Shown piece after piece: positions 1-17,405 of a stretch of 64,000 bases of DNA. The DNA lies in NCBI GenBank assembly GCA_963662545.2, contig CAXXLL010000002.1, forward strand, positions 1,632,001 through 1,696,000. The letters are read 5' to 3'. Every line of letters starts with the position of its first letter. Within the stretch, counting starts at the first letter, position 1. Source of the DNA: Gammaproteobacteria bacterium. Lineage in GTDB: Bacteria > Pseudomonadota > Gammaproteobacteria > Ga0077536. A model generated the notes under the pieces. That model did no database searches, was not told the origin of the DNA, and saw only the letters and a program-made list of their open reading frames with translations. The translations under genes were made by a program, and so were the position numbers.

Positions 1-714
1 GGCTACTTCGCACGGCCTTACTTTGAAGCGCTCGACACCGCCGGCGGCCATTTCATCGTGCGCGCGGGTCAGGGCATCAATCCGCTGATCCTGTGCGCTC
101 GTCAGACCCATGGGCGGCGGGTTAAACGCTTTGAGAATCAACGCTTGAAAGCGGTGGCATCGACGTTAAAGCGTTTCGACTGCCTCGACATGGTCGTGCA
201 ATTCGACGGCGTGCAGGAACCTTGGACCTGTCGTTTAGTCGTGCACCCCAACCTCAAAGGCACAGCGCCTCGTTATCTCATCACCAATCTCGACGCCGCC
301 ACCTTTACCCCCGAGCATGTCAGCGACGCGTATCGCTTGCGCTGGCAGGTAGAACTGCTCTTCAAAGAGTGGAAGTCTTACGCCAATCTACACGCCTTTG
401 ATACCGCCAACCCGCACATCGCCGAAGGGCTTATCTGGGCCGCACTATGCGCCGCAACGCTGCAGCGCTATTGCGCTCATGTCACCGAGCGCTGGTTGAA
501 CGTCGCCATCTCGACTCATACCGCGGCCAAGTGCATTCATCACGTGCTCGGTCCCATTCTCCATACGCTTATCCATCGGCCCCGCGCTTTACACCGACCG
601 CTCGAACGCGCGTTGCGCTATTTGGCCAGCAACGCTCAGCGCGCAAAACCTGGCCGCGATTGCATTTCGGGACGACTCAAACTCGGCCTCCACCATGTTC
701 ATGCGGCCGCTTAA
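1..714 (+). CDS. IS4-family DDE transposase (5'-partial)
   Basis: Frame open from base 1; motifs ...HFIVRA, YLITNL and YRLRWQVELLFKEWKS. Confidence 0.85.
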   Translation, partial: GYFARPYFEALDTAGGHFIVRAGQGINPLILCARQTHGRRVKRFENQRLKAVASTLKRFDCLDMVVQFDGVQEPWTCRLVVHPNLKGTAPRYLITNLDAATFTPEHVSDAYRLRWQVELLFKEWKSYANLHAFDTANPHIAEGLIWAALCAATLQRYCAHVTERWLNVAISTHTAAKCIHHVLGPILHTLIHRPRALHRPLERALRYLASNAQRAKPGRDCISGRLKLGLHHVHAAA

Positions 715-727
715 GAACTAACCTATG
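1..727 (+). mobile_element. IS4-family insertion sequence, right part (left end outside window)
   Basis: Transposase C-terminus with the IS4 Y-(2)-R-(3)-E-(6)-K signature (YRLRWQVELLFKEWK). The stop codon lies inside a terminal motif CTTAAGAACTAACCTATG (710-727), which reads CATAGG... on the minus strand. Confidence 0.85.
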
Positions 728-767
728 AGTAACGATTAGGTCTGCAATGGGCTCGTAAGCGGTCGTC
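728..767. repeat. Composite palindromic repeat module, copy 1 (unit B 740-764; left part cut by IS4)
   Basis: GTAACGATTAGGTCTGCAATGGGCTCGTAAGCGGTCGTC aligns with GTAAGGATTACGTCCGCAATCCTCTCGAAAGCGGTCGTC at 8989-9027. Confidence 0.8.
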
Positions 768-809
768 CGATAGTTCGGGGGCGCGAGCAAGCGTTATGAG
801 CCGTTCTAA

Positions 810-1097
810 GTCCGGCCGCTTGAGTTCGACAACAAGGCCGTCTACCGCACGCTCGGCATCGTCGTATTGTGCGGTTCCAATACGCGCACCGGGCAGGGCG
901 AACTCGTTTTCGTCAGGGCGATCGGCGGCACCTACAATTTTTACATCGTGCAGAAAATTTGGCGGACGCCGGAGTTCGATATATCTACGGAGTTGCCGGT
1001 GCCCCTCGCCGAACGCCAGACCTGGCTCGAATACCTCACGTCCATTGATGTCTGCGATCTGGGTCTAGGGAACTGTCCGGAATCGGTGAAGGAATAA
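810..1097 (+). pseudogene. 5'-truncated hypothetical gene fragment
   Basis: Protein-like frame (VRPLEFDNKAVYRTLGIVVLCGSNTRTGQGE...CDLGLGNCPESVKE*) begins straight after an in-frame TAA, with no RBS or convincing start. Confidence 0.45.
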
Positions 1098-1122
1098 GCG
1101 GCATTGGGGCTAGCCCGCCCCG

Positions 1123-2214
1123 TTACGCGACCGCTTTACGTTCGCCGAATCCGGTTTGAAATCGTGGCGCCACCTCGTTGGCGAACATCGTCATCGACCG
1201 CTCAATTTTTTCGAACGGCAAAGCGTACAGATCGCAATGCGCGACGAAATGGTTGTAACCCATCTCGATGTGGCGTTCGATTTTCTCGGCCACTGTGTCC
1301 GGTGAACCGACAAACAAGAGATCCAACACCTGTTCCATAACCTCCGGTTTCCCCAGGCTTTTCAGCATATTGAACAGCGCCATCCAGGATTCATAGCCCT
1401 TGATCTTGTCGAAGCGCGTGCTATCCACGGTGTAGTGTCTTTGTTGCAATTGAAAAAAACGGGTCATGGTTTCGCGTGCAATCGCGTAGGCCTCTGCGTC
1501 GGTCTCGGCAATGACCGTCGGCACCCAATTAATGCGGTCGGCGCTCGTATCGCCGCCAATTTCCGCGGTGACCTTCGCCCATTCCTTGATGTTTGCCTCC
1601 TGAACCTCCGGGTCGGGATAACCCGCATTCAACACCGGCAGACCCATTTCGGCGTATTTGCGGGCGCTGGTCGGATTCGCATACGGCCCGTAAAACGTGA
1701 TGTTTTCCGTCCTTGCCCGCGGTCGCAGTTCAACCTCCCGGGTGACGCTCACGAACTCGCCCTCATAGGTAAAGCTGCCCCCGGCCAACGCTTTTCGCAG
1801 GATCGCCAGCGCATCATTGAAGCGCCCCTGGGCGTCCGGCATGGGCACGCCGTAGGCCTCATGTTCCATCGGCGCCGTCCCGCGACCCACGCCCATATAG
1901 AGATGCCCATCGGTTTGGTTCGACAACATCGCGATCTCGGCCGCGAGGCGCAACGGCTGATACCATGGCAGCACTAAGACGCAGGTGCCGAGACCCAGTT
2001 CCGGGCATTGCGAAGCGATCTGGGAGAGCGTGATCATCGGGCTCGGTGTTGCATAGTAGTCGGTGAAATGATGCTCGGCCACCCAGACCGCCTCATAGCC
2101 CAGATCCCGCCCCAGCCGAGCGATCTTCATGCGTGTTTGGTAGATTGTGTGGTCGTCCGAACCGAGTGCATCCGTCGGGTTTGCGGAAAAATCAAAATGA
2201 ATGTCCTGTGTCAC
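1123..2214 (-). CDS. LLM-class (luciferase-like) flavin-dependent oxidoreductase
   Basis: VWVAEHHF, PLRLAAEIAML and GVGRG motifs; GGAGGA RBS upstream of the GTG start. Confidence 0.9.
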   Translation of the reverse strand: MTQDIHFDFSANPTDALGSDDHTIYQTRMKIARLGRDLGYEAVWVAEHHFTDYYATPSPMITLSQIASQCPELGLGTCVLVLPWYQPLRLAAEIAMLSNQTDGHLYMGVGRGTAPMEHEAYGVPMPDAQGRFNDALAILRKALAGGSFTYEGEFVSVTREVELRPRARTENITFYGPYANPTSARKYAEMGLPVLNAGYPDPEVQEANIKEWAKVTAEIGGDTSADRINWVPTVIAETDAEAYAIARETMTRFFQLQQRHYTVDSTRFDKIKGYESWMALFNMLKSLGKPEVMEQVLDLLFVGSPDTVAEKIERHIEMGYNHFVAHCDLYALPFEKIERSMTMFANEVAPRFQTGFGERKAVA

Positions 2215-2290
2215 TGACGATCCTCCAATAAACCAAGCCTAAGATAATGGCGCATTTTCACATGTAACGGCGGCTTATGACACCCGTGAT

Positions 2291-3312
2291 GTCCGTTATG
2301 GGTGTGCGCCGTGCAAAGGCGGCGTTCTTCAGTGGGTGCAAGTCCCACCCGGCAACTGTCGCTCCAGCCGGAAGCAATCGGAGCAGTCATGGAGGTAACA
2401 AGATGGCTGAAGCCTTCGGTGTAGAGGGTCACTAGGTGACTTGGCGAGTGTGCAGGCCGTAAGGTGAGTGAACGCTGAGCAAGCCTCGAAAAGGACGATG
2501 CACGTGCCGACCGGTCAACCCCTATCGGGAAGGCTGAAAGGGCTGGGGAAGCGAGCGATGAGCGCACCCAGTCGGCGTGCCGGGGTAGTGGCGATGGCAT
2601 GTACACAGAGGAGAACGCGCGCAACACGGGAAGCCCGATGGCGTGGTCGGTCGTGGCGATCAACCGGAGACCGGTGACGGTCAGAGAGGGCGCTATGGGG
2701 TGGCGGAGAGGCCCGTAGTACTGAGGAAGCCGGGTAATGCTGGTGGAGGGAAGGGGCCTTAGTTCAAGACGGGCACTGAAAGCGGCAAAGCACAGGAGAT
2801 TGGGGCAACCCTAGGCAACTCCGGTAAGGTGCGGGCGCGGTGGAAGGCGTCACATGTTGAAGCGAAGGAAGAACCCGGATTGCGATCTGGGAAGCGAATG
2901 CCCACCCAAGTGGTGGCATTGGCGGTTGTGTGCAGAACGCTCGGTTCGTGCACGTCGGGATACACGGCCCGGTGTGGTGGGTCGGGTGAACTGCGGATGA
3001 CCTTTCGTGTGCCAAGGCATGAGTCTTGTCCGAGAGCCGGATGCGGTAGTTCCGCCTGTCCGGTTCGATGAGGAGGATGTGGAAACGGAGTGATGGTCCG
3101 GCTATTGAGGCACCGCCAGACGAAAGGGGCGGCAACAGATTGGCTGAACCTTAGACCACCGCGCCACATCCTTACTCTACCGATAGCCGCCTGATCGCGG
3201 CAGTGCAGCACCGCTAAAGTTTACGTCTGCAATGCGCTTGTAAGCGGTCGTCGAGTTGCTTCAAGCATCGAGTCGAGAGGGTACGACGACTTTCGACCAA
3301 CCAGAAGCGGTC
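2291..3312. repeat. Composite repeat module, copy 2 (unit A 2291-2303 + 3181-3191 split by the intron; unit B 3225-3249; unit C 3285-3312)
   Basis: Removing the intron restores the 24-bp unit GTCCGTTATGGGT|CGATAGCCGCC, followed by the GCAGTGCAGCA spacer and GTCTGCAATGCGCTTGTAAGCGGTC. Confidence 0.8.
2304..3180 (+). ncRNA. ORF-less (RT-deleted) group II intron, 877 nt
   Basis: 5' end GTGCG; domain V GAGCCGGATGCGG...CCGCCTGTCCGGTTC (3034-3066) with the AGC triad; long domain VI ending ...CCTTACTCTAC. Only relics of the start and end of the RT ORF remain in domain IV. Confidence 0.9.
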
Positions 3313-3423
3313 CTTCTCGGCCCGAACTCCGGCGTTTAATAACGCGGAAATAGGCGGTGCGCGCCGCGCCAGTGGCTTACGGGTGTACAATGCACGAGGA
3401 CTAACCGCGGAGATGCTAAGACC

Positions 3424-3894
3424 ATGAGCGCCAAACCCATCACCACGCCGCCCGGCTGTGACCTGTACGACCATGAGATCGATTGGCAGCCCTTCGCCGG
3501 CATCGAAAACCTCGAACTCACACTGTGTGATCTCGACGAAGAACGCCACGTAGTCGATCTGATCGTGCGCTTCGCGCCTAACAAGACCGTGACTATGCAT
3601 AATCACCTGGCGCAGACCAACATGCTCATCATCCAGGGGGAACTGCGCATGTACGAACCAGACGGCAGCATCCGCGAGGCGCGACCGGCCGGACGCTATT
3701 ACCGCGGTCGCACCGACGACACACACAGCGAGGGCGGCGGCCCGGACGGCGCGGTGGTCTTCTACAGCATGCGCTGCGACGGTGCGCACGACGTACTTGA
3801 AATTATGGACGAAGCTGCCAACGTGCAGGCGACGTTGACCATGGATGACGTTCGGGCGGCGTGGGACGCGCAGCAGCAAGCCCGTTCGGCGTGA
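3424..3894 (+). CDS. Cupin-domain protein (ChrR-like)
   Basis: Cupin metal motifs MHNHLAQT...QGEL and THSEGG; GGAG RBS. Confidence 0.8.
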   Translation: MSAKPITTPPGCDLYDHEIDWQPFAGIENLELTLCDLDEERHVVDLIVRFAPNKTVTMHNHLAQTNMLIIQGELRMYEPDGSIREARPAGRYYRGRTDDTHSEGGGPDGAVVFYSMRCDGAHDVLEIMDEAANVQATLTMDDVRAAWDAQQQARSA

Positions 3895-3967
3895 CGAGCG
3901 TGCGTATAGTCACTGTTCAATCAATTTCAGCGTCTCCTTAGAAGAAAACTGGAAACCAGGGTCGTGG

Positions 3968-4272
3968 GACCGCTCAGGGTCGTGAGCCGCCCACTCACGG
4001 CAGTGCAGTACCGCTCCAAATCACGTCTGCAATACCCTCAATAGCGGTCGCCCACTAGCGTTCGGCGGAACGTTAGCCGAGCAGGTCAGCTCACGGCCGA
4101 GGCTGTGTGAAAACTCAAAAACGGGACGACGAAAATAAAAAATTCTCCACCAACATAGTAGTTAAGGCCGTTGAAAAGGGATCGACATTTCAATTAGATC
4201 CAATTTCGAGTGTAGTTCCCCCACTTTTGAAAAACCAAAATAGTTTTCACACAGCCTCGGCCATGATCGGTC
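3968..4272. repeat. Composite repeat module, copy 3 (A 3968-3991, B 4025-4049, C 4085-4098 + 4263-4272 split by a MITE)
   Basis: Colinear with the copy at 8953-9254 over about 120 bp, including the spacer TAGCGTTCGGCGGAAC. Confidence 0.85.
4099..4258. mobile_element. MITE 1, IS1182-like ends, 160 bp
   Basis: Perfect 17-bp TIR GAGGCTGTGTGAAAACT / AGTTTTCACACAGCCTC; GGCC duplicated at 4095-4098 and 4259-4262; AT-rich non-coding interior. Confidence 0.88.
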
Positions 4273-4863
4273 ATAAACATCTTCATACTTTGCAAAAGAA
4301 AACCCCGCGCTAAGGTGGAGCTTCGTATTCTGATAGCGGTCCGGCATTCCTTCCGCCCGAGCACCCCCGCAAGCGAAGTTGCCGACCCTCAACGACTGAG
4401 GCTCGATGTCACCCCTAAACTCAACCACGGATGCCAGGCCTCTTAAGCCAACGGTCACAGCCTCGCGCGCCCACACCCCTGTAGCACCAGCCAACGCCGA
4501 ACATCGACCACCGAACAACGCTAAACTCGGCTCATCACCGCCTCAGAACTACTCAATTGGTTCTCGTTGACGAGACGCGCGACCGACGCATGGTCGAAAA
4601 ATGGCCGTTATTCGCTCTAGACTCCGATCTGCAATCTCCCCACAATCGTGATCGAGTATGTCACGTGCTCCAAATGGTAATTGTTACAAAGGGGGTCATA
4701 AGTAACCGATCATTGCCACAGACTTTGGTGCGCTACGGAGTACGTTTTTCCAATGAAGTGATGTTCGGATACTTTGTTTCGCCTTAGTAACTAGTGTGTA
4801 GTGCCCATCCAGGCTACATATTCGGATCTTCGTTTAACATAGCGCGGACCGGTTAACTGGGGG

Positions 4864-5517
4864 ATGACGTTGGCGAAGCTCGAGTTCTTCTTCGATTTTG
4901 CCAGCCCGTGGACCTATATGGCCTACTGCCGTGTCGAATCGATCGTCGCGGAGACCGGGTCGGATCTCGAATGGCGGCCGTTCGACATGAGCGACGTGTT
5001 CTAGAAGGCCAACCCCGGTGTTGCGACGATGCGCGCAAACCCCGTGCCTGCCAAAATCACGCACTATTACAAGGATATGCAGGATTGGGCGCGACGCCTT
5101 GGCATTACGATCGGCCGGCCGCCGGTATACGGCGGCGCTGCGCAACAATTACGCTGCGTTAAAGCGCTTAGCGGCGCATTGATCGCGCTGGAGCGAGATT
5201 GCATATCCGATTACTCACGTGCGATGTTCGAAGCGTACTGGCACGACTTGCGTGATCTTTCCGATGACGATGTATTGACCAATATCGTCTCGGATCTGGG
5301 CTTTGATGCGTCTGAATTTCTACAACGAGTCAACTCATCCGAGTTAAAAAACGAAATCGTCGCAAACGCCGAAGAGCTCATAGCCCGAGGCGGCTTCGGT
5401 TCGCCGACCTTTTTCGTCGACGGTGATGATATGTATTTCGGCAATGATCGGTTGGACTTCATACGTGAAGCACTATCGCATCGTCCAGATATCGCCGCGG
5501 GTAGCGGGCAGGGTTAA
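4864..5517 (+). pseudogene. 2-hydroxychromene-2-carboxylate isomerase / DsbA-family (GST-kappa-like) gene with an internal stop
   Basis: KLEFFFDFASPWTY at the N-terminus and GGFGSPTFFV...FGNDRL at the C-terminus are in one frame, interrupted by TAG at 5002-5004. Confidence 0.85.
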
Positions 5518-5522
5518 CGAGC

Positions 5523-6275
5523 TTGGAAGGCCAGGTCGCAATTGTAACCGGCGCTGGCAGCGGCATCGGCGCGGCCATCGTACGTGAATTCGTAACGTTG
5601 GGGGCTGCGGTGCTGATCGTGGACATCGATGGTGACCATGCTGCGAAGGTAGCGAAAGAACTGACAGACACCGGCGGGCACGCCGCGAGTTTAACGGTTG
5701 ACGTCACCGATCAAGCACAGGTCGACACCATCTCCAGCGCCGCGATCGAGCAATTCGGTGCCATTCATATCCTCGTGAACTGTGCCGGCATCGGTGAAAA
5801 CACGACGATCGCTGAGCACAGTATCGAACAATTCGAACGCATCATCGCGGTCAACTTGACTGGTAGCTACCGCTGTATCCGTGAGGTCATGGGCGAGATG
5901 ATGGCGCGCAAGTACGGCCGGATCATCAATGTGTCATCGGTCGCGGGGCTGCGCGGATGCGCGGGCCGTATCGGTTACGGCACGTCGAAGGCTGGCGTCA
6001 TCGGCTTGACCAAACATGCTGCGGTGGAGTTGGCGCCCTACAACATCACTGTCAACGCCATCGCGCCGGGTCCTATCGACACACCGTTGACCCAGGCGAT
6101 CCACCCACCAGACACGCGTGAGCAGTTCAACCGGGTTATCCCGCTGCACCGCTATGGTACGCTGGACGAAGTCGCGTTCAGCGTGGCCTTTTTGGCATCC
6201 GAGCGCGCGAGCTACATGACCGGACACACGCTCACCCTCGACGGCGGTTTCAGTTCGTCGGTCGCCATTTTCTGA
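5523..6275 (+). CDS. SDR-family NAD(P)-dependent oxidoreductase (FabG-like)
   Basis: TGAGSGIG, NCAG, YGTSK and NAIAPG motifs. Confidence 0.92.
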   Translation: MEGQVAIVTGAGSGIGAAIVREFVTLGAAVLIVDIDGDHAAKVAKELTDTGGHAASLTVDVTDQAQVDTISSAAIEQFGAIHILVNCAGIGENTTIAEHSIEQFERIIAVNLTGSYRCIREVMGEMMARKYGRIINVSSVAGLRGCAGRIGYGTSKAGVIGLTKHAAVELAPYNITVNAIAPGPIDTPLTQAIHPPDTREQFNRVIPLHRYGTLDEVAFSVAFLASERASYMTGHTLTLDGGFSSSVAIF

Positions 6276-6285
6276 AGGAGATCCC

Positions 6286-7353
6286 ATGAGATTTAGCATC
6301 ATTATCGTCCCGCAAGTTCGAGACGGGGAGCCTGAAGTATTCGAACAGATCGTTGAACAGATCGAATATGCCGAAGAGCTTGGCTACGACACCGTTTGGC
6401 TGACCGAACACCATTTCAGCCCCTACGGGCGGGCGGCCGTGCCGAGTATTGCGGCCCATGCCATCGCGCGGACCAAAAAAATTCGGATCAGCACGGCCGT
6501 TGTGGTTCTACCGTTTCATCACCCCGTGCGGGTCGCCGAAGAGTGGGCAACCCTCGATCACATGTCCAAGGGCCGTGTAGACGTCGGTCTCGGTCGGGGT
6601 AACCAGCCCGCGGAGTTCAAAGGTTTCGGCATTCCCATGGACGAGGCCGAACAGCGCTTCGCCGAATCCTTGGCGATCATCAAGCGCGCTTGGACCGAAG
6701 AGCGGTTCTCCTACGCTGGGCAATTCTGGCAGATCGAAGATCTGTCGGTACTACCCAAACCCTTTACGAAACCCCATCCGCCGTTATGGCAGGCCGCTTT
6801 GAGCGACTATACCGTCCAGAAGGTCATCGACCGCGACATCAACGGTCTGATCGGACCTTATCTGTGTCCGTACGAAACCTTGAAAACGAATTATTTCGAC
6901 GTGTGGCACGGACGTCTCCGCGAAGCCGGTCGAACTGATCTGGCCTTAGCACACAATGAGTTCGTCTATGTCGGCGAGAGTGACGCACAAGTCAAAGCCG
7001 ACATCGAGGAAAACATCATGTGGTATATCCGCACGGCCGCGAAGATTTGGGGCGAGCGCGATCGAAGCAAAGTCGCGAGTCAGTACGCGAATTACAACGA
7101 CATTCTCGAATACCTCGACGTCGTCCCATTCAGCGAGGTCTATAACGAATTGGGTATGTTCGGAACGCCCGACGCGGTAGCGGAAAAAGTCCGTTGGATG
7201 CGCGACGAAGGCGGTGTCGAGCAACTCATTAACTTCACGTGGTTTGGCGGCATCAGTCAGGAAAAGGCACTGCGCAACATGGAGCTGTTTGCGCACGAAG
7301 TGATGCCGCGGTTTAAGGAGCTGGTAGAAGTCGCCGGCGCGTTCGGGGCTTAA
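6286..7353 (+). CDS. LLM-class flavin-dependent oxidoreductase
   Basis: WLTEHHF, HPVRVAEEWATLD and GLGRG motifs; GAAGGAG RBS. Confidence 0.92.
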   Translation: MRFSIIIVPQVRDGEPEVFEQIVEQIEYAEELGYDTVWLTEHHFSPYGRAAVPSIAAHAIARTKKIRISTAVVVLPFHHPVRVAEEWATLDHMSKGRVDVGLGRGNQPAEFKGFGIPMDEAEQRFAESLAIIKRAWTEERFSYAGQFWQIEDLSVLPKPFTKPHPPLWQAALSDYTVQKVIDRDINGLIGPYLCPYETLKTNYFDVWHGRLREAGRTDLALAHNEFVYVGESDAQVKADIEENIMWYIRTAAKIWGERDRSKVASQYANYNDILEYLDVVPFSEVYNELGMFGTPDAVAEKVRWMRDEGGVEQLINFTWFGGISQEKALRNMELFAHEVMPRFKELVEVAGAFGA

Positions 7354-7394
7354 TTAGAGACCGTCGCGAAATTTACAGCACGGAGAAGCGCTCG

Positions 7395-8450
7395 ATGGGT
7401 GAGGAAACATTGAATAGAGAAATGATCGACGTATTTCGCGAAGAGTTGCGGCTTTGCGGTGTAGGTCCCGGCGAGAAGGTCGCGGTGCTGTCCGAAGGCG
7501 ATATCTTGCAAGATTACTCAGAGGCGTTTTTGCACGGTGCTGAAGAACTCGGCGCGGACGCCGTGCGCGTCAACGTCGCCGCGTCAGATACCAATGCCGG
7601 TGCGGAAGCGCGCCTCGCAGATTTGGGCACGAGTGCCTTGTCGACCGACCGTGAGTCGTTGGAGACGCTCAAAGGGTCTGACCTGGTCGTCGATCTGATG
7701 CTGCTGTTGTTTTCAAAAGAGCAACTCGAGATCCAGGCCTCGGGTACCCGCATCTTGCTCGCAGTCGAGCCTTTTGAATCCTTGAAACGTCTGTTCCCGA
7801 CGGACGCCCAGCGTAAGCGCGTGGAGTCCGGCGCGCGTCGCATGTTCGCAGCCGAGACCCTGCGGTTTACCAATGGCGTTGGCACCGACGTCCGCTATGA
7901 ACTGTTAAAGGGGCCGCCAACCAAATGCGTCATCACCGAATACGGTTTCACCGATATTCCCGGTCGCTGGGACCACTGGCCAAGCGGCTTTCTCGCCTCG
8001 GCTGGGACTAAGACGGGCGTCGAAGGACGGGTGGTGATGGATGTCGATGACATGATCTTGCCGTGGAAGCAGCTACTGCGCGCTCCCATCGATTTAACCA
8101 TTCGCGACGGCGTGATCACCGATGTCGCGGGAGGCGATGACGCGAAACAGTTTCGTGAGTACGTCGAAAGTTTTGAAGACCCGCGCGCCTATGGGATTTC
8201 ACACATTGGCTGGGGACTGAACGAAAACGCGAATTGGGATGTGAACGTGCCCGGCATCTGTCAGGACGGACGCGCCTACTACGGCAACGTGCTTTTTTCG
8301 ATCGGCCCGAATATCGAATTCGGCGGTGACAACGATACCGCCTGTCACCTGGATCTACCGATGAAGAATTGTTCGCTGTGGCTGGATGATGATCTGATCG
8401 TCGAAAACGGTCGCGTCATTCCCGACGATATGCGGGCGCCGGGGCGTTAG
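7395..8450 (+). CDS. nicX: 2,5-dihydroxypyridine 5,6-dioxygenase-like protein (NicX family, peptidase M29-like fold)
   Basis: Segments GTRILLAVEP, TEYG...PGRWDHWPSGFL, YGISHIGWGL and CHLD match my recollection of NicX, including the His/His/Asp iron ligands. Exact substrate is uncertain. Confidence 0.75.
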   Translation: MGEETLNREMIDVFREELRLCGVGPGEKVAVLSEGDILQDYSEAFLHGAEELGADAVRVNVAASDTNAGAEARLADLGTSALSTDRESLETLKGSDLVVDLMLLLFSKEQLEIQASGTRILLAVEPFESLKRLFPTDAQRKRVESGARRMFAAETLRFTNGVGTDVRYELLKGPPTKCVITEYGFTDIPGRWDHWPSGFLASAGTKTGVEGRVVMDVDDMILPWKQLLRAPIDLTIRDGVITDVAGGDDAKQFREYVESFEDPRAYGISHIGWGLNENANWDVNVPGICQDGRAYYGNVLFSIGPNIEFGGDNDTACHLDLPMKNCSLWLDDDLIVENGRVIPDDMRAPGR

Positions 8451-8462
8451 ACCAGGCAACGC

Positions 8463-8563
8463 ATGTCCCACACCGAAATCTGCCGCATGGATGCGGCCAC
8501 ACTCGCCGACAACATTCGTTCCAAGGCACTCTCGCCTACCGAGGTCATCGAGGCTGTCCTGCC
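8463..8563 (+). pseudogene. Amidase-family gene, N-terminal ~33 codons only
   Basis: MSHTEICRMDAATLADNIRSKALSPTEVIEAVL is a typical amidase/GatA N-terminus; it switches abruptly into transposase sequence. Confidence 0.75.
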
Positions 8564-8935
8564 CTCGCGGCACTCATTCCCAAACTCCGCGTCAACCTCA
8601 TCCGCTACCACGGCGTGTTCACCCCGAACAGTCCACACCGCGCAGCGGACACCCCCGCCCGTCGCGGCCGCAAAGCGCCAGGTACCAAGGGTTCCGAAAC
8701 ACCCGTCGAGCGCCGCGCCGCCATGAGCTGGGCGCAACGCCTCAAGCGCGTGTTCAACATCGACATTGAAACCTGCGAGGTATGTGGCGGTGCGGTGAAG
8801 GTCATCGCCTGCATCGAAGATCCCGCTGTCATCCAACGCATCCTCGACCATCTCGACCACCGCTCTGCACAGCCGACGCTTGTCTGCGTCCTTCCTTCAC
8901 TACCGCTCCGGTCGGCCGAAGCAAACGCACGATAA
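8564..8935 (+). pseudogene. IS91-family (Y2 HUH, rolling-circle) transposase, C-terminal remnant
   Basis: LAALIPKLRVNLIRYHGVFTPNS and MSWAQRLKRVFNIDIETCEVCGGAVKVIACIEDPAVIQRILDHL; the catalytic N-terminal part is absent. Confidence 0.85.
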
Positions 8936-8952
8936 TGCATCGCAACAAGTCC

Positions 8953-9254
8953 GGTCGTTCCCGGTCTAATCGCGGCAGTGCAACACTGGTAAGGATTACG
9001 TCCGCAATCCTCTCGAAAGCGGTCGTCCAGTAGCGTTCGGCGGAACATTAGCGGAGCACGTCGGCTCACGGCCGAGGCTGTGTCAAAAGTCGAAAAATGG
9101 AGCCCGCTGCGAAAATTTTCCCCAATGCACGACTTAGATTGTTATGCACGATTGATTAAGGGAACACACCGCCTAAGGTAGGCAAATCGAGCTAAACTTC
9201 TCCCACTTTCAAAATTCAAAAATACTTTTGACACAGCCTCGGCCAGAAGCCGAC
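8953..9254. repeat. Composite repeat module, copy 4 (half A 8953-8966, B 9000-9024, C 9060-9073 + 9245-9254 split by a MITE)
   Basis: Colinear with copy 3; the restored unit C is GTCGGCTCACGGCCAGAAGCCGAC. Confidence 0.85.
9074..9240. mobile_element. MITE 2, IS1182-like ends, 167 bp
   Basis: Perfect 17-bp TIR GAGGCTGTGTCAAAAGT / ACTTTTGACACAGCCTC; GGCC target duplication. Confidence 0.88.
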
Positions 9255-9425
9255 ATCACGTCCCGAGTTCCACTACCTTTGACAGCACTATTGTCTGTCC
9301 GTCAGTGGCCCCGTTTCCTGAGAGAAAAGTGGGCGTGCACGCAGAGCCCGAACGAGTGTGTGCACAGTGGCTATACTTGGATCTGGTGCGCAGAAGTTCT
9401 GGCTGCGGGGGAGGAGTGTGTCGCG

Positions 9426-9860
9426 ATGTCACGTTTATTTGTCATGCTCGCAAGTATGCTCGTGATTCCAGCCGTGGGCGCGTTCGATACGGAACACGAT
9501 AGCCGTGCCTTGCTCTATTTTGAGGTCCCGTTCGGCAAAGCGGCAGCAGCTCCGTCGTATTCTTTCGGAGTTCGTCTGGAGCGGGTGAATCACCAGGAGA
9601 AGATGGTGGTTTCGATGACTCGTCCCGTGAGGGCCGCTCCAGTCATGGATATTCGAGGAACCCTCGAAGGAATCAGTTCCTGGACGATAAACGGTGAGGA
9701 ACTCCTCGCTAATCGATATGTGACAAGCGCGGCCGAAGGGGGTTCTAAGACGGTCGTAATAACCATCGTTGTGGTGGCAGCGGTTGTGGGCGCGGCTCTA
9801 TTGATAGTTGACGCGGTGGAGGATGAGATCGAAGAGAGTATTGACTTCAGCAACAATTAG
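9426..9860 (+). CDS. Hypothetical exported/membrane-anchored protein
   Basis: GGAGGAG RBS, N-terminal signal-like segment, C-terminal hydrophobic helix and acidic tail. Confidence 0.65.
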   Translation: MSRLFVMLASMLVIPAVGAFDTEHDSRALLYFEVPFGKAAAAPSYSFGVRLERVNHQEKMVVSMTRPVRAAPVMDIRGTLEGISSWTINGEELLANRYVTSAAEGGSKTVVITIVVVAAVVGAALLIVDAVEDEIEESIDFSNN

Positions 9861-9992
9861 AACCTTCGGACGTGTTGCCTCAAGAAGGAATGTTACCGAA
9901 GTGTGACACCGTTGGGGCCGGCTCCTTAAGTGACCGGAAAAGTTGACAGTATTATTTTCTCTGTGAAGAGATAAATCCGTACGAGGCTGCAT

Positions 9993-10220
9993 GTCTTCTT
10001 CGGGTCCAGGCTGTCCGAAAACTCCGAAAAATCGTTACGTGACGAAAAATTTCCCCACTTGTTGTCCCTATAGCAGATGAATTAGGGATCACACTGCGCG
10101 ATTTGATCAGATTGGATAACGCATTCCCCACAAAATCGAATTTAGTTTTCGGACAGCCTGGGTCGACTCCGGACTCCCGCAGTGCAGCATGGCATGGCTG
10201 CTTACGGCGGTATAGCGGAC
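9993..10220. repeat. Composite repeat module, copy 5 (A 9993-10006 + 10165-10174 split by a MITE; B 10196-10220)
   Basis: Restored unit GTCTTCTTCGGGTCGACTCCGGAC, spacer GCAGTGCAGCA, then GGCTGCTTACGGCGGTATAGCGGAC. Confidence 0.75.
10007..10160. mobile_element. MITE 3, IS1182-like ends, 154 bp
   Basis: Perfect 17-bp TIR CAGGCTGTCCGAAAACT / AGTTTTCGGACAGCCTG; GGTC target duplication. Confidence 0.88.
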
Positions 10221-10367
10221 CCTAATCTCGTAAAGCCCGATTGCAGAGTGCGGTGTTTATGCGACGGCACTCGTCAGGTTAGGTCGAATCCAGGATGCCA
10301 ATATGTAAGAACGAGTCCAAGTTTTCACAAATTATGGTCTCGCGATGCGAACGGACCGGATTCACCG

Positions 10368-11363
10368 TTATGCCACGCGGGCATCGATGCGGTAGAGACC
10401 AGCACTGCGCGCTGCTGCGATTGCGCCCGCCAGCTCCGTATCTCGGGGCCGGCGATCGATATCGCGATATTTACCCTTACGGTCGTTTGGTCCCACCTGG
10501 TATTCCGGACGGTATTGCGACATCACGTTGACATAGGTATCGACCGACAATTCGTCAGCGAGCCAATTCAATATTGCGCGGGTCTCGTCTTCCTGTCCCG
10601 GCATCACCAGATGGCGCACCAGCAGCCCGCGCCGCGCTAGGCCGTCGGGGCCGAACCGAAGCGGTCCAACCTGGCGTTGCATCTCCTGGATCGCCGTTCT
10701 TGCCCGCTCGGGATAATCCTTGGCTTTGGCGAGGCGCCGGGCACTCTCGCGGTGCCAGAACTTGAAGTCGGGCATGTAGATGTCGACGATGCCGTCGAGC
10801 AGCCGCAGCGACGACACCGCGTCGTAAGCGCTGGTGTTGTAGACGACCGGAATATGGAAGCCCCTGGGCACTGCGGCCGCGACGGCCTCGATGACCTGGG
10901 GCGCGACATGCTCGGGGGTGACGAAATTGATGTTGTGACAACCGCGTTCCTGTAATGCCAACATGATGGATGCGATCTGATGAGCGTCGCATTCGGTGCC
11001 TGATTTTTGTTGAGAGATGTCCCAGTTCTGGCAGAACACACAGCGCAGGTTGCACTGCCCGAAGAATATCGTGCCCGAGCCGTACGAACCACGCAGGCAG
11101 TCTTCTTCGCCAAAGTGTGGGAAGGCGCTCGAGACGATCGCGTGCCGGCCCGTGTGGCATACCCGCGCGACGTTCTCCAGGCGGTTGACGTGGCAGTTAC
11201 GGGGACAGGCGCAGCAGTCCTCGAGTTCACCGAGGGCGTTCGCGACGCGTTGCTCGAGTTCGCCGCTACGGTAGAGTGTGAGATAGGCGGGTTCGAAGTG
11301 CTCGATCACGAAGCGCCGTTCGTGACGGGATGTGCGGGTACGAAGGCGTTCTACATCGCTCAT
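10368..11363 (-). CDS. pflX: Radical SAM protein, PflX-like
   Basis: CCACPRNCHVNR, HFGEE, CNLRCVFCQN (CxxxCxxC), DIYMPDFK and LLVRHLVMPG motifs. Confidence 0.85.
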   Translation of the reverse strand: MSDVERLRTRTSRHERRFVIEHFEPAYLTLYRSGELEQRVANALGELEDCCACPRNCHVNRLENVARVCHTGRHAIVSSAFPHFGEEDCLRGSYGSGTIFFGQCNLRCVFCQNWDISQQKSGTECDAHQIASIMLALQERGCHNINFVTPEHVAPQVIEAVAAAVPRGFHIPVVYNTSAYDAVSSLRLLDGIVDIYMPDFKFWHRESARRLAKAKDYPERARTAIQEMQRQVGPLRFGPDGLARRGLLVRHLVMPGQEDETRAILNWLADELSVDTYVNVMSQYRPEYQVGPNDRKGKYRDIDRRPRDTELAGAIAAARSAGLYRIDARVA

Positions 11364-11598
11364 TACACTGTCGCTTAAACGCCGGCCTACGCCGCCCGTT
11401 CGTACTGCGTGACGACGCAACACCTGCCGCGCCCGATGTTGTGCTGCAAGGCGATCTTCGCTCCTTCAATATGAAATGGCGTGATGCCACTTTCAGTTAC
11501 GCGAACGATACCGGACAATAGGCCGGTGCACATCATTTTGCGCTGCGGGGCGGCGCTTCAAACGCGTGCATCCCGAACACCTAAAAGGGGGAGATAGC

Positions 11599-12339
11599 AT
11601 GGCAAACGATCGGATCGCTCTGGTGACGGGTGCGAACCGGGGGCTGGGCTTTGAGATCTGTCGCCAGCTGGGCAGCCAGGGCCACACGATGATCGTCGCT
11701 TCACGCGATCCGGATAAGGGCGAAGCGGCAGCCGAAAGGCTTCGTGCCGAGGGCATTGACGCGCACGCCCAGCAGTTGGATGTGGCCGATTCCGCCAGTA
11801 TCGCGGCTGCGGCCGACGCCGTTGCAAAGCAATTCAGCGTGCTCGACGTGCTGGTGAACAACGCCGGCACCTTCGTCGAGGAGTGGGGCACCTTGCCGAG
11901 CGCGGTGACCGTGGCCCAGATGCGTGAAACCTTCGACACCAATTTCTTCGGCCCCCTCGAGGTCCTGCGCGAGTTCATACCGCTCATGCGCAAAAGCAAA
12001 GCTGGGCGCGTTGTCAACGTTTCGAGCGACATGGGTTCGCTCGCAAACATCAACAACCCGGAATCGATCGTCTACGACGTTATGGGTCCCGCCTATCAGG
12101 CGTCAAAGGTGGCCATCAATGCACTCACGACCTTGTTCGCGAAAGAATTCAAGGACACGAACTTCAAGGTCAATTCGTCGTCGCCCGGCTGGTCGCGTAC
12201 GGATATGGGGGGCGAGGAAGCGCCGCTCAGTCCCGCCGAAGGCGCGGACACCGCCGTGTGGCTCGCGACCCTGCCGGACGACGGGCCCACCGGGGGATTC
12301 TTCAGCGCGACGCGCGAGCGTGGCGCGATGGAGTGGTAG
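11599..12339 (+). CDS. SDR-family oxidoreductase (carbonyl reductase-like)
   Basis: TGANRGLG, NNAG, YQASK and PGWSRTDMGG motifs. Confidence 0.92.
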   Translation: MANDRIALVTGANRGLGFEICRQLGSQGHTMIVASRDPDKGEAAAERLRAEGIDAHAQQLDVADSASIAAAADAVAKQFSVLDVLVNNAGTFVEEWGTLPSAVTVAQMRETFDTNFFGPLEVLREFIPLMRKSKAGRVVNVSSDMGSLANINNPESIVYDVMGPAYQASKVAINALTTLFAKEFKDTNFKVNSSSPGWSRTDMGGEEAPLSPAEGADTAVWLATLPDDGPTGGFFSATRERGAMEW

Positions 12340-12384
12340 GCAGGGCGCGTCAAAAAGAACATTTAAATAAGAGGTGGTTTTACC

Positions 12385-13230
12385 ATGACCCGATGCGGTG
12401 TCATCATTTTCGCGACCGACAAGTCCATGCAGCCGATAGAACTGGCGAAGGCCGTCGAGGAGCGAGGGCTGGATTCACTCTTCGTGCCGGAGCACACGCA
12501 CATTCCCACGAATTCGGTTTCGCCGTTCCTGCCGGGGGGCGAAATACCCGAGCCTTATCGCCGAACTTATGATCCGTTCGTCGTGCTGGCCGCGTGTGCG
12601 GCTGTCACCGAACGCATCTCGCTCGGAACCGGCATCTGTCTGGTGTCACAACGGCATCCGATTACCCTGGCGAAGGAAGTAGCGACCCTCGACAACATAT
12701 CCAATGGACGGTTCATATTCGGTATCGGCGCCGGCTGGAACAAGCCGGAGATCGAGAACCACGGCACCGTGTTCGAGCAGCGCTGGGCCGTGTTGCGCGA
12801 ACGGATCCTCGCGATGAAAACCATATGGACCGAAGACGAGGCCGAGTTTCACGGCGAATTCGTAGATTTCGATCCCATCTGGTCCTATCCCAAGCCGGTG
12901 CAGGCCGGCGGACCCCCGATCTGGATCGGCGCCAATTCTAAATATGTCGCCGATCGGGTGGCCGAGTTCGCCGACGGCTGGCTGCCGATCGGCGGACGTG
13001 CCGGCGGCGCGAATATCGCTCAGGTTCGCGCGGCTTGCGAGAAGCGCGGGCGCTCGTTCGACGACATTACTCTGGCACTGTTTTTTCCGCCGATGGACGA
13101 GGGCGAAGCCCGTGAGCAAATCGAACTCGGATACTCGGAACTCATTTTCCACCTGCCTTCCGAGGGTGCGGACAAGGTATTGCCCGTGCTCGACGATATC
13201 GCGGTGCTTGCGGACAAGCTGCGCGGGTGA
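12385..13230 (+). CDS. LLM-class, probably F420-dependent oxidoreductase (Rv2161c-like)
   Basis: FVPEHTHIP, DPFVVL, LAKEVATLD and GIGAGWN; short 281-aa LLM typical of this family. Confidence 0.85.
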   Translation: MTRCGVIIFATDKSMQPIELAKAVEERGLDSLFVPEHTHIPTNSVSPFLPGGEIPEPYRRTYDPFVVLAACAAVTERISLGTGICLVSQRHPITLAKEVATLDNISNGRFIFGIGAGWNKPEIENHGTVFEQRWAVLRERILAMKTIWTEDEAEFHGEFVDFDPIWSYPKPVQAGGPPIWIGANSKYVADRVAEFADGWLPIGGRAGGANIAQVRAACEKRGRSFDDITLALFFPPMDEGEAREQIELGYSELIFHLPSEGADKVLPVLDDIAVLADKLRG

Positions 13231-14225
13231 GCGTGAATGAAGACCACCCGTTTCACCGTCTGACACCGGATTTCATTCTCGCGGCCGTCGAGTCACGCGG
13301 CTACGTTACCGACGGTCGGCTGCTCGCGCTCAACAGCTACGAAAACCGGGTCTACCAGATTGGAATCGAAGACGCGCAACCTTTGATTGCGAAGTTCTAT
13401 CGCCCCGGACGCTGGACCGACGAACAGATCCGCGAAGAACACGCCTTCTGTTTTGAACTCGTCGCGCAGGACCTGCCAGTGGTTGCACCGCTCGGCGACA
13501 GCCCTGCGGACAGCCTGGTTCACGTCGAGGAGTTCCCGATCGCCTTCTATCCGCGTCGGGGCGGTCGGGCGCCCGATTTGGACGATGACGAAAACCTGCG
13601 CACCATGGGACGCTACCTGGCACGCATGCACACCGTCGGCGCGGGCCGTCCATTCGAGTACCGGCCGGCCATCGACGTAGATTCATTCGGCACCGAGAGC
13701 GTCGCATACGTGAGCGGCAACTGCATACCCGATGATCTGCGGGCCGCCTACGACAGCCTGACCGTCGATTTGCTACGCCTGTGTGATGAGCGTTTTACGA
13801 TGTGTGAGGGCGTACGTATTCTGCGCGTGCATGGCGACTGTCACCACGGCAATGTCTTGTGGCGCGACGACGCGCCGCATTTCGTCGATTTCGACGACGC
13901 GCGCATGGCGCCCGCGGTACAGGATTTGTGGATGCTCTTGTCCGGACATCGCGAAGAGCAACGCGTGCAACTCAATACTATCCTCGAGGGCTATCATGAA
14001 TTCGCGGATTTCGATTTGCGTGAAATGGCATTGATCGAAGCGCTCAGGACCCTGCGCATGCTGCACTACGCAGCATGGTTGGCGCGTCGCAGGGATGATC
14101 CGGCCTTTCCCCTGGCATTCCCGTGGTTCAACTCGCAGGCGTATTGGGAGCGCCACGTGCTGGAGCTGCGTGAACAGTTTGCCGAGCTATGCGAACCGCT
14201 CTGGTCGGGAGAAATGCTACAGTGA
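13227..14225 (+). CDS. srkA: Stress-response Ser/Thr kinase SrkA (RdoA/YihE)
   Basis: LNSYENRVYQ, KFYRPGRW, HGDCHHGN, DFDD, QDLWMLL and DPAFPLAFPWF motifs. Confidence 0.93.
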   Translation: MSVNEDHPFHRLTPDFILAAVESRGYVTDGRLLALNSYENRVYQIGIEDAQPLIAKFYRPGRWTDEQIREEHAFCFELVAQDLPVVAPLGDSPADSLVHVEEFPIAFYPRRGGRAPDLDDDENLRTMGRYLARMHTVGAGRPFEYRPAIDVDSFGTESVAYVSGNCIPDDLRAAYDSLTVDLLRLCDERFTMCEGVRILRVHGDCHHGNVLWRDDAPHFVDFDDARMAPAVQDLWMLLSGHREEQRVQLNTILEGYHEFADFDLREMALIEALRTLRMLHYAAWLARRRDDPAFPLAFPWFNSQAYWERHVLELREQFAELCEPLWSGEMLQ

Positions 14226-14251
14226 ATGGCGCGGCAGAAGGCTAGTGAGAT

Positions 14252-14611
14252 ATGCGGATTAACCTCCATAAGCTCATCGGCTTTGCTACGGCGGTGGGGC
14301 TTGTCATTGCGGTGCTCGCGCTGGTCGGCATCGGTATATCGGGCGTTGACGACGCGCTCTTGATCCTCTTCTGGTGCGGTTGGGGCGTGGTCAGTGCCGC
14401 CTTGCTAGCCGGCCTTTTCACAGTCAGGATGCCGTTACCGCTGGACGGCCCGTTCAAGGTGATTCGATTCGGAATCGCCACGGTGATCCTCGGTTTTGCC
14501 ATGGAATCGCTTTCCGGTGCTTCGATGCGGCCGCTGTGGGGCTTCGGAGCCGCGACGGTGTTCGTGGGGATCGGTTGGGCCCTGTGGTCGATCGGGGGCA
14601 TGCGGGAATGA
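14252..14611 (+). CDS. Hypothetical membrane protein (about 4 TM)
   Basis: Four hydrophobic stretches; fits between co-oriented genes. Confidence 0.6.
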   Translation: MRINLHKLIGFATAVGLVIAVLALVGIGISGVDDALLILFWCGWGVVSAALLAGLFTVRMPLPLDGPFKVIRFGIATVILGFAMESLSGASMRPLWGFGAATVFVGIGWALWSIGGMRE

Positions 14612-14748
14612 ACAGGTGGCCTATGCGGGACACCACACCAGTGTCGGCAAAAGCTTGCTGAATCTTGGTGCCCCGATTGACTGTTTCGCGACGCGGGCCT
14701 ACTTTGCGCGAGGTAGAAACGACGAGGCCCAAAACGAAGGAGACATCC

Positions 14749-15216
14749 ATGTTCGCCGACAATGCCTATGAATCAATGGCTGCACGTGAAGTCATCGAGC
14801 TACACGAATTTCTCGAAAACTGGTTCACAGGCCGCTGCACGAACGCCGACGAAGTATGGTCAGCTCGGTTATTGTCGCGTTTCACCGATGATTTCCACAT
14901 CACTATGCCCGCGGGGACACTCCTGTCGGGCGGCGGGCTGTGGGATCCCCTGCGTGCCGAACACGGGCGCAACCCGACCTTCAAGATCAACATCAGGGCC
15001 ATCGTTCAGGCCGCACGCCTGCGCAACGGCGTTTCGGTGTGGACTTATGAAGAATGGCAGCGCAACGCGTTGAATGCCTCGCCGCCCGATAACGGGCGCG
15101 CGGCGAGCGTGGTGTTTATCGAGGATCCCACGACGGCGACGGGATTGAAATGGGCTCACGTTCACGAGACTTGGTTGCCGGCGGAAACCATAGCCGCCGA
15201 TGCGTTCGACTGGTAG
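14749..15216 (+). CDS. NTF2/DUF4440-like hypothetical protein
   Basis: EVIELHEFLENWF...YEEWQ...WAHVHETW pattern; GAAGGAG RBS. Confidence 0.7.
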   Translation: MFADNAYESMAAREVIELHEFLENWFTGRCTNADEVWSARLLSRFTDDFHITMPAGTLLSGGGLWDPLRAEHGRNPTFKINIRAIVQAARLRNGVSVWTYEEWQRNALNASPPDNGRAASVVFIEDPTTATGLKWAHVHETWLPAETIAADAFDW

Positions 15217-15260
15217 TCGTAACACAGACTTAACGAGATTTAAGGCGAGGAACTCTTATC

Positions 15261-17350: not shown

Positions 17351-17405
17351 CTTACGGTCCACGGTCGTGATCGAATTGCGGGGTGAAGCAATTGGAATCG
17401 AGCGC

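Follow-up and report, generated by a model that had tools for sequence, protein, structure and literature searches.

Co-oriented copies of an about 150-bp composite repeat bound cassette-like segments, within transposon-like units, in a gammaproteobacterial genome

What accounts for a bacterial genome region in which unrelated gene segments are set, one after another, between copies of the same composite palindromic repeat? The question is raised by a stretch of 64,000 nucleotides, hereafter the window, that lies at C2:1632001-1696000 on the forward strand of a genome (G000) of 5.58 Mb in three contigs, of which C2 and C3 are named here. The organism is an uncultured marine gammaproteobacterium, apparently known from metagenome-assembled genomes (MAGs) alone. 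A first-pass annotation had described in the first 10.3 kb of the window five copies of a repeat, which we refer to as the module, and had proposed that its palindromic units are single-stranded hairpin sites served by a Y2 HUH transposase. The repeat is real, but five copies greatly understates the family, which numbers 121 in the genome; and the reading that we tentatively favour is that of a double-stranded recombination site recognised by a protein.

The module is about 150 bp long, with a GATGTCCGCT-type left end and an AGCGGAC-type right end that are mutually inverted repeats (10-18 nt in the alignments). Between these ends lie, in order, unit A (half-sites round a GGGTCG loop), a conserved GCAGTGCAG box, unit B (GTCTGCAAT and AGCGGTC flanking nine hypervariable nucleotides), a stretch that varies among a few sub-types, and unit C (CGGCC). 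A 7-bp half-site occurs six times per module in alternating orientation and so makes up three inverted pairs of GTCCGCT-type and AGCGGAC-type sequences: the left end with unit A, the two arms within unit B, and a site just after unit B with the right end. When 41 copies drawn from three species are aligned, 10 columns show no variation and another 44 are conserved at 90% or above; the spacers within the dyads are hypervariable. Stretches of at least 30 nt spanning the GCAGTGCAG box and unit B are identical in many copies.

We made a census of the whole G000 genome with a profile derived from 94 copies, which yielded the 121 matches. Of these, 115 fall within 11 arrays that together comprise 347,645 bp (6.23% of the genome), the largest of which extends over more than 136 kb (C2:612973-749010) and holds 39 copies. 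Modules are thus clustered in variable islands rather than scattered evenly in the manner of repetitive extragenic palindromic (REP) elements. Among neighbouring pairs closer than 12 kb (n = 100), 98 have the same orientation, which bears out genome-wide what had been described for the window, namely that modules bracket unrelated segments in one orientation. Matches to the unit-B motif at up to two mismatches number 114 in G000 versus 7 for the reversed control. On the + strand of the window this motif is exact at 740, 3225, 4025 and 9000 and degenerate at 10196; six matches at up to three mismatches compare with 1.70 expected, and none of 100 shuffles reaches six. Matches to the whole-module profile lie at 730-787 (unit B only), 3174-3326, 3968-4116 and 8951-9099, and neither motif nor profile search of the window finds a further copy beyond 10.35 kb, in agreement with the earlier description, which had noted no clear copy past 10.3 kb.

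We scanned three species of the genus and 78 genomes from 17 other genera of the family with a sequence profile (R1) and found the module in all three species and in none of the 78 genomes. BLAST concurs, with three of 41 genomes positive, G000 itself included. One of the two module-bearing congeners (G001 and G002) carries at least 27 modules and the other at least seven. Exact-pattern scans of public contig collections, which are insensitive for the module and for the U and D elements described below, returned four stretches in three records among genome contigs and, among metagenome contigs, two short module-bearing contigs whose DNA is otherwise unrelated.

The degenerate fifth copy in the window led to two further conserved elements, U (about 155 nt) and D (about 185 nt), and is itself the terminal D element of an array rather than the ordinary module copy for which it had been taken. 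The window holds the last 10 kb of this 33,256-bp U...D array, which runs from C2:1609074 to window position 10329. The head of D (unit A loop and GCAGTGCAG box) corresponds to positions 19-55 of the module profile in all six D copies, and the tail of U (unit C and right end) to positions 124-155 in two of five U copies. Both elements carry a unit-B-like dyad at the point where the module-like sequence ends, and in every pair the head of U is an inverted repeat of the tail of D over about 65 nt. There are five U...D pairs in G000, spanning 1.3, 1.9, 4.7, 7.5 and 33 kb, and two of the five enclose a single cassette and no whole module. Because all five pairs are flanked by 7-bp direct repeats (with 7, 6, 5, 5 and 6 of 7 bases matching), we regard the U...D unit as a transposon-like insertion; for the unit that reaches into the window, the left copy of the target duplication lies just before C2:1609074. 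The outermost bases of U...D resemble the ends of a resident 1687-bp insertion sequence (IS) of the IS5/IS1182 type. Both congeners have U and D elements as well, for example a pair 17 kb apart round modules on contig C13 of G001. In a search for the empty site, the gene beside D was found to have an 80% ortholog in G001 with no D, U or module within 40 kb, synteny being lost on that side, and the left flank maps to scattered places in G001 and G002.

The features of this part of the window are as follows, with window coordinates, strand and supporting match; MITE denotes a miniature inverted-repeat transposable element, ORF an open reading frame, and 'profile' gives coordinates in the module profile.

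1-728 (+): 3' part of an IS4-type IS, its DDE_Tnp_1 transposase open at the window start (PF01609, E 2.7e-16)
730-787 (+): module copy 1, unit B and a few flanking bases (exact unit B at 740-764; profile 60-119)
780-2303: cassette 1, with a 5'-truncated ORF at 796-1097 (+) and a luciferase-like monooxygenase at 1123-2214 (-) (Bac_luciferase, E 7.4e-46)
2291-2303 (+): module copy 2, left arm of unit A, severed by an intron between GGGT and CG of the loop (same junction at another locus, L081)
2304-3180 (+): ORF-less group II intron in unit A (RF02003 at 2330-2467, 100.8 bits; RF00029 at 3032-3180, 36.1 bits, which is under the gathering score of 40)
3174-3326 (+): module copy 2, right part of unit A, GCAGTGCAG box, unit B, variable part, unit C and right end (profile 19-167, E 1e-35)
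3424-3894 (+): gene of cassette 2, ChrR-like cupin (Cupin_7, E 4e-8)
3962-4098 (+): module copy 3, complete to the GGCC of unit C (profile 13-161, E 2.5e-33)
4099-4267 (no strand): MITE in unit C of copy 3, with GGCC on both sides (inverted repeat of 25 nt, 96% complementary)
4272-4281: last 10 nt of module copy 3, beyond the MITE
4282-8569 (+): cassette 3 (Pfam and ORF table), with the next five entries
4864-5517: DsbA-like pseudogene with an in-frame stop near 5001 (DSBA, 3e-27)
5523-6275: short-chain dehydrogenase/reductase (adh_short_C2, 2.5e-67)
6286-7353: luciferase-like monooxygenase (Bac_luciferase, 3.1e-65)
7395-8450: 351-aa ORF in this catabolic-looking cassette (no Pfam family)
8463-8569: short gene fragment (ORF table)
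8570-8950 (+): 3' remnant of an IS91-family (Y2) transposase gene (gene to 8935) and element end, abutting the left boundary of module copy 4
8951-9073 (+): module copy 4, unit A shortened, otherwise complete to the GGCC of unit C (profile 21-169, E 1.8e-36)
9074-9247 (no strand): MITE in unit C of copy 4 (inverted repeat of 31 nt, 90% complementary)
9252-9261: right end of module copy 4, beyond the MITE
9426-9860 (+): gene of cassette 4, small predicted exported or membrane protein (ORF table; no Pfam match)
10007-10160 (no strand): MITE in the unit A loop of the terminal D element, with GGTC on both sides (inverted repeat of 18 nt, 100% complementary)
10157-10329 (+): D terminal element, with module-like head, dyad and tail of about 110 nt (D profile, E 2.2e-62)
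10330-10336 (no strand): right copy of the 7-bp target-site duplication of the 33,256-bp U...D element (6 of 7 bases identical to the left copy)

The inserted elements that had been recognised in the window are real: a group II intron, three MITEs and an IS91-type remnant. The ORF of that remnant (8615-8935) has no Pfam match; its DNA matches Y2_Tnp loci by BLASTN (e.g. C2:665906-666011 and C2:668839-669039), so the earlier call stands, and the same element end also abuts modules at two aligned loci (L065 and L084). The IS4-type IS has a 93.6% identical copy at C2:440379-441823 that ends at the equivalent of window position 728, and it is this element that replaced the left part of module copy 1.

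The segments between modules, which we refer to as cassettes, measure 122-10,109 bp (median 2059.5 bp, n = 98). An ORF of 100 aa or more is present in 94 of them, and the longest such ORF runs in the direction of the modules in 47 and against it in 47. Arrays, strains and species differ in the contexts and orders in which the same cassettes are found. Cassette 1 of the window (780-2303) has a 99.7% identical copy with other neighbours in the largest array (C2:662313-663836). As the truncated gene of this cassette continues upstream in that copy, the sequence earlier assigned to unit C of module copy 1 is the interior of the gene, and copy 1 consists of unit B alone, not of a full module. A 671-bp cassette recurs at 99.3% identity, one copy being fused to the right arm of unit B and the other following a complete module, and a 2.3-kb module-cassette-module block recurs at 94.9%, the shared sequence ending about 20 nt after unit B. 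A 5.7-kb contig (L125), from a strain that is 99% identical, shares its upstream cassette and the left part of the module with the orthologous locus of G000, whereas the right part of the module and the downstream cassette differ from that locus and are found in G000 at C2:606840. This contig (5732 nt), which is filed as part of a Candidatus Poribacteria MAG, is 98.97% identical over 4834 nt to C3:899429-904262, and probably belongs to a strain of the gammaproteobacterium studied here and not to the bin under which it is filed. In G002, the cassettes of a G000 unit of the form U-X1-module-X2-D stand in the order module-X2-module-X1 at another locus beside a tRNA gene; X1 and X2 are 96-97% identical between the two genomes, compared with about 91% for the adjoining core DNA. 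On contig C26 of G002 (7700-7790 of the extracted locus) a module array begins directly after the tRNA gene, and the orthologous tRNA gene in G000 (C3:1174130-1174214) has different, module-free DNA downstream.

Four of 24 sequencing runs that hold parts of the window were compared, as Logan contigs, with window positions 1-12000. Between repeats these contigs match the window exactly, and they end at modules, MITEs and IS; their joints have sides of 22-32 letters that match other module copies and are uninformative on excision or empty sites. The repeat family thus explains why assemblies of this organism break at modules. Two further repeats in G000, each either a large repeat or an assembly join, are an 8.3-kb block with three modules that is duplicated at 99.8% (C2:2578406-2586680 and C3:909923-918197) and a 4459-bp sequence that is 100% identical, inverted, between the right end of C2 (C2:2586676-2591134) and the left part of C3 (C3:8971-13429).

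Modules are also the place where several kinds of mobile element have inserted. In the alignment of 60 modules, the end of an IS or MITE abuts the GGGTCG of unit A in 25 and the end of a MITE abuts the GGCC of unit C in 11, in both cases with 4-bp duplications. The elements are an IS of the IS5/IS1182 type and its MITEs, which insert at GGTC or GGCC with duplication of these 4 bp; the autonomous element is the 1687-bp IS mentioned above, with a DUF772/DDE_Tnp_1/DDE_Tnp_1_6 transposase. At least 14 copies of this IS are 99.5-100% identical (e.g. locus L041, 10616-12302), a sign of a recent burst in which nearly all insertions went into the GGTC of unit A. Much of the palindromy that had been attributed to unit C turns out to be the terminal inverted repeat (TIR) of MITEs inserted at GGCC. 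We also considered cassettes as TIR transposons that duplicate GGYC, and rejected this, the left copy being consistently GGCC and the right copy GGTC. The group II intron is present in three copies in G000, all beside modules at GGGT^CG, the two outside the window lying at C3:14622 and C3:2554780. A metagenome contig of another lineage (L161, 441-550 and 600-685) carries a module beside an 85% homolog of the 5' end of the intron, so the association of intron and module extends beyond the G000 genome. It recalls the homing of group IIC introns to attC, as described in PMC3001079.

The IS91-family elements deserve separate consideration, as the first-pass annotation had suggested that a Y2 enzyme of this kind may serve the modules. 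Of 20 Y2_Tnp matches in G000, 11 lie in the arrays, that is, in 6.2% of the genome. Six elements have two genes, a tyrosine recombinase and a Y2 transposase; all six are co-oriented with the modules, and each starts immediately after a ...GGAC end, which belongs either to a module-type unit or to a further two-gene element; their right ends carry the same AGCGGAC-type motif as the right end of the module. In G001 and G002, on the other hand, we found Y2 fragments alone (open frames of 121, 86 and 100 aa), and the recombinase of the two-gene elements, not found in either congener at E<=1e-40, is present in nine module-free genomes of five other genera. Enrichment of IS91-family genes in the arrays is therefore seen in G000; the congeners have modules and no intact Y2 gene. 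Local alignment of the module with the two IS91 ends gives scores of 23, 18 and 33 against shuffle means of 24-27, no better than shuffles, which led us to reject the idea that the module is a miniature IS91 element; no conserved origin-like sequence is found at the left edges of cassettes. Since all six two-gene elements sit directly after ...GGAC ends, as IS, MITEs and the intron sit at module motifs, the IS91 elements use modules as targets. From the absence of their recombinase in the congeners and its presence in module-free genomes, the fragmentary Y2 genes of the congeners and the shuffle-level alignment between module and IS91 ends, we conclude that they are insertions recognising the module end and not the engine of the system. 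IS91-family elements, the IS5/IS1182-type IS, MITEs and the group II intron are all guests that home to module motifs.

Nor is there evidence that the units are conserved as hairpins. RNAalifold on the 60 copies gives -0.84 kcal/mol and three pairs, with no consensus fold. Covariation in units A and B is 0.062, versus 0.062 in shuffles (260 of 500 as high), and that of the closing pair and the box 0.148 versus 0.146 (200 of 500 as high). Of 12 single-stranded DNA folds (six copies, both strands), with z-scores from -2.46 to +0.42, three fall below -2. A fold seen repeatedly in single sequences, in which the left arm of unit B pairs with the GCAGTGCAG box, was discarded, since its variable positions, as we read the alignments, show no compensation. 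The possibility of a structured RNA was likewise set aside: at gathering thresholds, and at E<=1 over window positions 600-10500, Rfam finds the group II intron alone and no match for the module, and the RNAalifold result is null. Dyad symmetry is present in the sequence, and there is no hairpin signal to support the single-stranded sites proposed earlier; the module is conserved as sequence, not as a fold.

G000 also contains a classical integron, with intI at C2:996723 (TIGR02249, 462.5 bits); upstream of this gene, 11 or more attC sites, each about 125 nt long and with cores of the form CCTAAC...GTTAGG, make up an array. The ends of the module, of the GATGTCCGCT and AGCGGAC types, lack such cores, as had been noted from the window, and the module is not attC. 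In the extracted integron region (L039, C2:980000-999900) the attC array occupies about 1900-15560 and intI 16724-17665; the cassettes are short and unrelated to the module arrays. A second intI (C3:1527239-1528180, 461.1 bits) has no repeated attC-like family in the 17 kb upstream.

On these grounds we tentatively favour the reading that modules are double-stranded, protein-recognised recombination sites, with site-specific founding of arrays followed by accretion and shuffling of cassette-plus-module units, to which homologous recombination contributes. The combination of invariant half-sites and freely varying spacers suggests recognition of double-stranded DNA by a protein, and in size and layout the module is comparable to attP or res-type sites. 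A circle of one cassette and one module would integrate into a resident module in a Campbell-type reaction, which would therefore leave same-direction module copies on both sides, and the reverse reaction would excise it. Founding may have occurred when a module recombined with a palindromic dyad located centrally in a MITE-like platform whose terminal inverted repeats are long; this would leave hybrid ends, U being the platform head with the right part of the module and D the left part of the module with the platform tail. The whole unit of U, cassettes and D is itself transposon-like, with a 7-bp target duplication. It is the co-orientation of modules, the hybrid character of U and D, and the existence of single-cassette units without a whole module that point to Campbell-type integration. 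We infer that a sequence-specific recombinase, not encoded beside the arrays, carries out both founding and accretion, the crossover being in unit B or close to it; part of the present-day shuffling is probably due to homologous recombination between modules.

A number of results weigh against this reading and need to be set beside it. The seven homology breakpoints that we mapped are spread over the module: the first falls between unit A and the GCAGTGCAG box, two coincide with the left boundary of unit B and one with its right arm, a fifth is some 20 nt past that unit, a sixth falls somewhere in the interval from the box to unit C, and the last is roughly 10 nt short of the right end. Homologous recombination accounts for such scatter no less well than does a single crossover point. 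The U element of the G000 unit cited above is about 75% like the module part of G002, by our reading of the alignment, compared with 96% for the cassette, so that this unit was not formed by recent integration of a G002-like circle. No cargo-free platform (head, dyad and tail) was found in G000, a candidate for an empty platform in G001 proved to be a truncated U head, and the likeness of the U tail to the module is weak (E 0.05-0.09). Cassettes contain gene fragments, pseudogenes and many IS, and given these contents and the 47:47 division of gene direction the arrays could be mere junkyards. Finally, no recombinase is linked to the arrays or common to the three module genomes. The recombinase of the two-gene IS91 elements is missing from both congeners at the threshold given above; G002 has two Phage_integrase matches, and of 15 in G001 none lies in its 44-kb array on contig C14; the single serine recombinase gene of G000 is broken; and the XerCD system finds no support in site likeness, unit B being unlike the dif-like site and sharing none of its arms.

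Several observations accompany this search. G000 has one dif-like site, at C2:2180004, with two mismatches from a proteobacterial consensus, and module orientation has no polarity relative to it. FimB-like recombinases of 196 aa were rejected as candidates, one lying 2 kb from an array and another far from any. A GIY-YIG gene was rejected too: all three of its copies in G000 are at array edges, but it is absent from G001 and G002. This nuclease (190 aa; L041 4068-4640, C2:606125-606679 and C3:385457-386008) is in each case found at the upstream edge of an array or close to it, in the orientation of that array, and a U-like half unit comes after it. Among seven Y1_Tnp matches in G000, just a 78-aa fragment at C2:745668 lies inside an array. 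Mutual information and two-segment change-point scans for a crossover were set aside as most of the 'mosaics' that they return reflect a conserved left half against a variable right half of the module; two right-identical module pairs were informative.

The scatter of breakpoints raises the question of whether site-specific recombination is needed at all. Modules could serve as portable homology, with cassettes moved by RecA-dependent single crossovers between the module of an incoming or excised circle and any resident module and with gene conversion homogenising the copies. No conserved recombinase would then be expected in the three module-bearing genomes, and none is found; the identical runs of at least 30 nt over the GCAGTGCAG box and unit B that many copies share would provide the substrate, and Campbell integration by homology would likewise give co-oriented flanking copies. 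Nevertheless, invariant half-sites with hypervariable spacers across three species are not expected from homology alone, a co-orientation of 98:2 needs selection or a directional process, and the U and D junctions could not be made in this way, as these elements share with modules just short, roughly 60% similar dyads; we consider an explanation by homology only to be unlikely. Should the junkyard-like contents of the arrays be taken at face value, the module might instead be a selfish or structural repeat, similar to MITE or REP elements, that spread independently into islands, the 'cassettes' being no more than the DNA between copies. Many REP and MITE families are restricted to one genus, as the module is, and the 10-18-nt terminal inverted repeats of the module, the richness of the arrays in IS (ends in unit A of 25 and in unit C of 11 of 60 modules) and the unbiased gene direction all agree with it. 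Independent insertion would, however, produce random orientation rather than 98 of 100 pairs alike, no target duplication surrounds any of 25 modules with both flanks intact, 115 of 121 copies are confined to 6.2% of the genome, arrays end in the specific half-elements U and D, and whole cassettes recur elsewhere together with parts of modules, all of which make this a rather unlikely account.

The mechanism proposed in the first-pass annotation, in which a Y2 transposase of the IS91 type, or of the insertion sequence common region (ISCR) type, cuts and joins folded units while rolling-circle read-through captures adjacent DNA and stacks it at ...GGAC, would explain why 11 of 20 Y2_Tnp matches lie in arrays, why all six two-gene elements share the orientation, the ...GGAC junction and the AGCGGAC-type end of modules, and why genes at cassette edges are truncated. 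It is made improbable by the missing hairpin signal, by congeners that maintain arrays without an intact Y2 gene, by the presence of the IS91 recombinase in nine module-free genomes of five genera and in neither congener, by alignments to IS91 ends that stay within shuffles, and by left cassette edges with no conserved origin-like sequence. We give almost no credence to the idea that modules are unusual attC sites whose arrays are clusters of attC sites lacking integron-integrases (CALINs), served by the integron integrases of the genome. Two intI genes do exceed the TIGR02249 cut-off, arrays are co-oriented, and the sites, like attC, are homing targets of group II introns and IS (PMC3001079); but the genome's own integron has canonical attC sites with no likeness to the module, module ends have neither attC cores nor a folded-structure signal, the nearest arrays are about 112 kb and about 52 kb from the two intI genes, and cassette genes are not co-oriented with the sites.

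If modules are recombination sites, G000 has, beside its ordinary integron, a second and larger cassette system of at least 348 kb and 121 sites. Such a system would have a different site logic, no linked integrase and packaging in transposable units, would widen the known routes of accessory-gene assembly, and would provide a concrete sequence for testing a new recombinase specificity. If modules are merely portable homology, a repeat family still organises 6% of a genome into exchangeable blocks and offers mobile elements of four unrelated kinds a shared homing target.

How does this compare with known systems? In the parts of the literature accessible to us, we found no description of such arrays or of the repeat. 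Integrons and CALINs are alike in having co-oriented arrays of 60-150-bp sites with unrelated segments between them, in occupying variable regions, in attracting introns and IS, and in varying in cassette order. Modules differ in having no RYYYAAC/GTTRRRY cores and no conserved fold, and their arrays have no integrase, attI or promoter at the head; the cassettes are larger (median 2 kb), may hold operons, fragments and IS, and have genes in either direction; the arrays lie inside elements bounded by TIRs and target-site duplications, and the genome's real integron uses other sites. With IS91 and ISCR elements the arrays share a fixed tetranucleotide (GGAC) at junctions, head-to-tail stacking, truncated edge genes and, in G000, enrichment in Y2 genes; beyond the terminal motif, modules have no significant similarity to IS91 ends, congener arrays lack intact Y2 genes, and IS91 elements behave as insertions. 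TnPedia reportedly describes IS91 elements with an integrase gene. REP elements, bacterial interspersed mosaic elements (BIMEs) and their REP-associated tyrosine transposases (RAYTs) offer another parallel, as these repeats are also short, dyad-symmetric, genus-specific and extragenic and are targets of IS; modules, in contrast, are clustered, uniform rather than alternating in orientation, composite at 150 bp, and have no associated Y1 gene.

In other systems, units accrete at site-specific recombination sites: Xer-dependent arrays of integrative mobile elements exploiting Xer (IMEX) at dif, pdif modules, and tandem islands at att. There too, direct copies of the site flank each unit and the outer ends are hybrids, as attL and attR are; here, however, unit B is unlike the host dif-like site, there is no element integrase, the sites number 121, and the array is inside a mobile TIR element. 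The res, IRS and rst sites of the Tn3 family occur once per transposon, next to the recombinase gene. Like the module, they measure about 120-150 bp and have several inverted half-site pairs at different spacings, and recombination takes place between direct copies; modules differ in being present in many copies with no linked recombinase gene. It is possible, though on balance doubtful, that the arrays represent a new kind of integron-analogous capture, in which an about 150-bp, multi-dyad, double-stranded site replaces the folded attC, circles are stacked at a palindromic pad within a mobile TIR element, and a recombinase, unrecognised or of the host, acts in trans. The U...D unit itself resembles a MITE or non-autonomous TIR transposon, with a TIR of at least 65 nt, a 7-bp duplication, several copies and no transposase of its own, but differs from these in its cargo, which is a module-punctuated cassette array of up to 33 kb at the central dyad. 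The combination found here, that of cassette arrays bounded by recombination-site-like repeats inside a TIR element, is a variation on known kinds of system.

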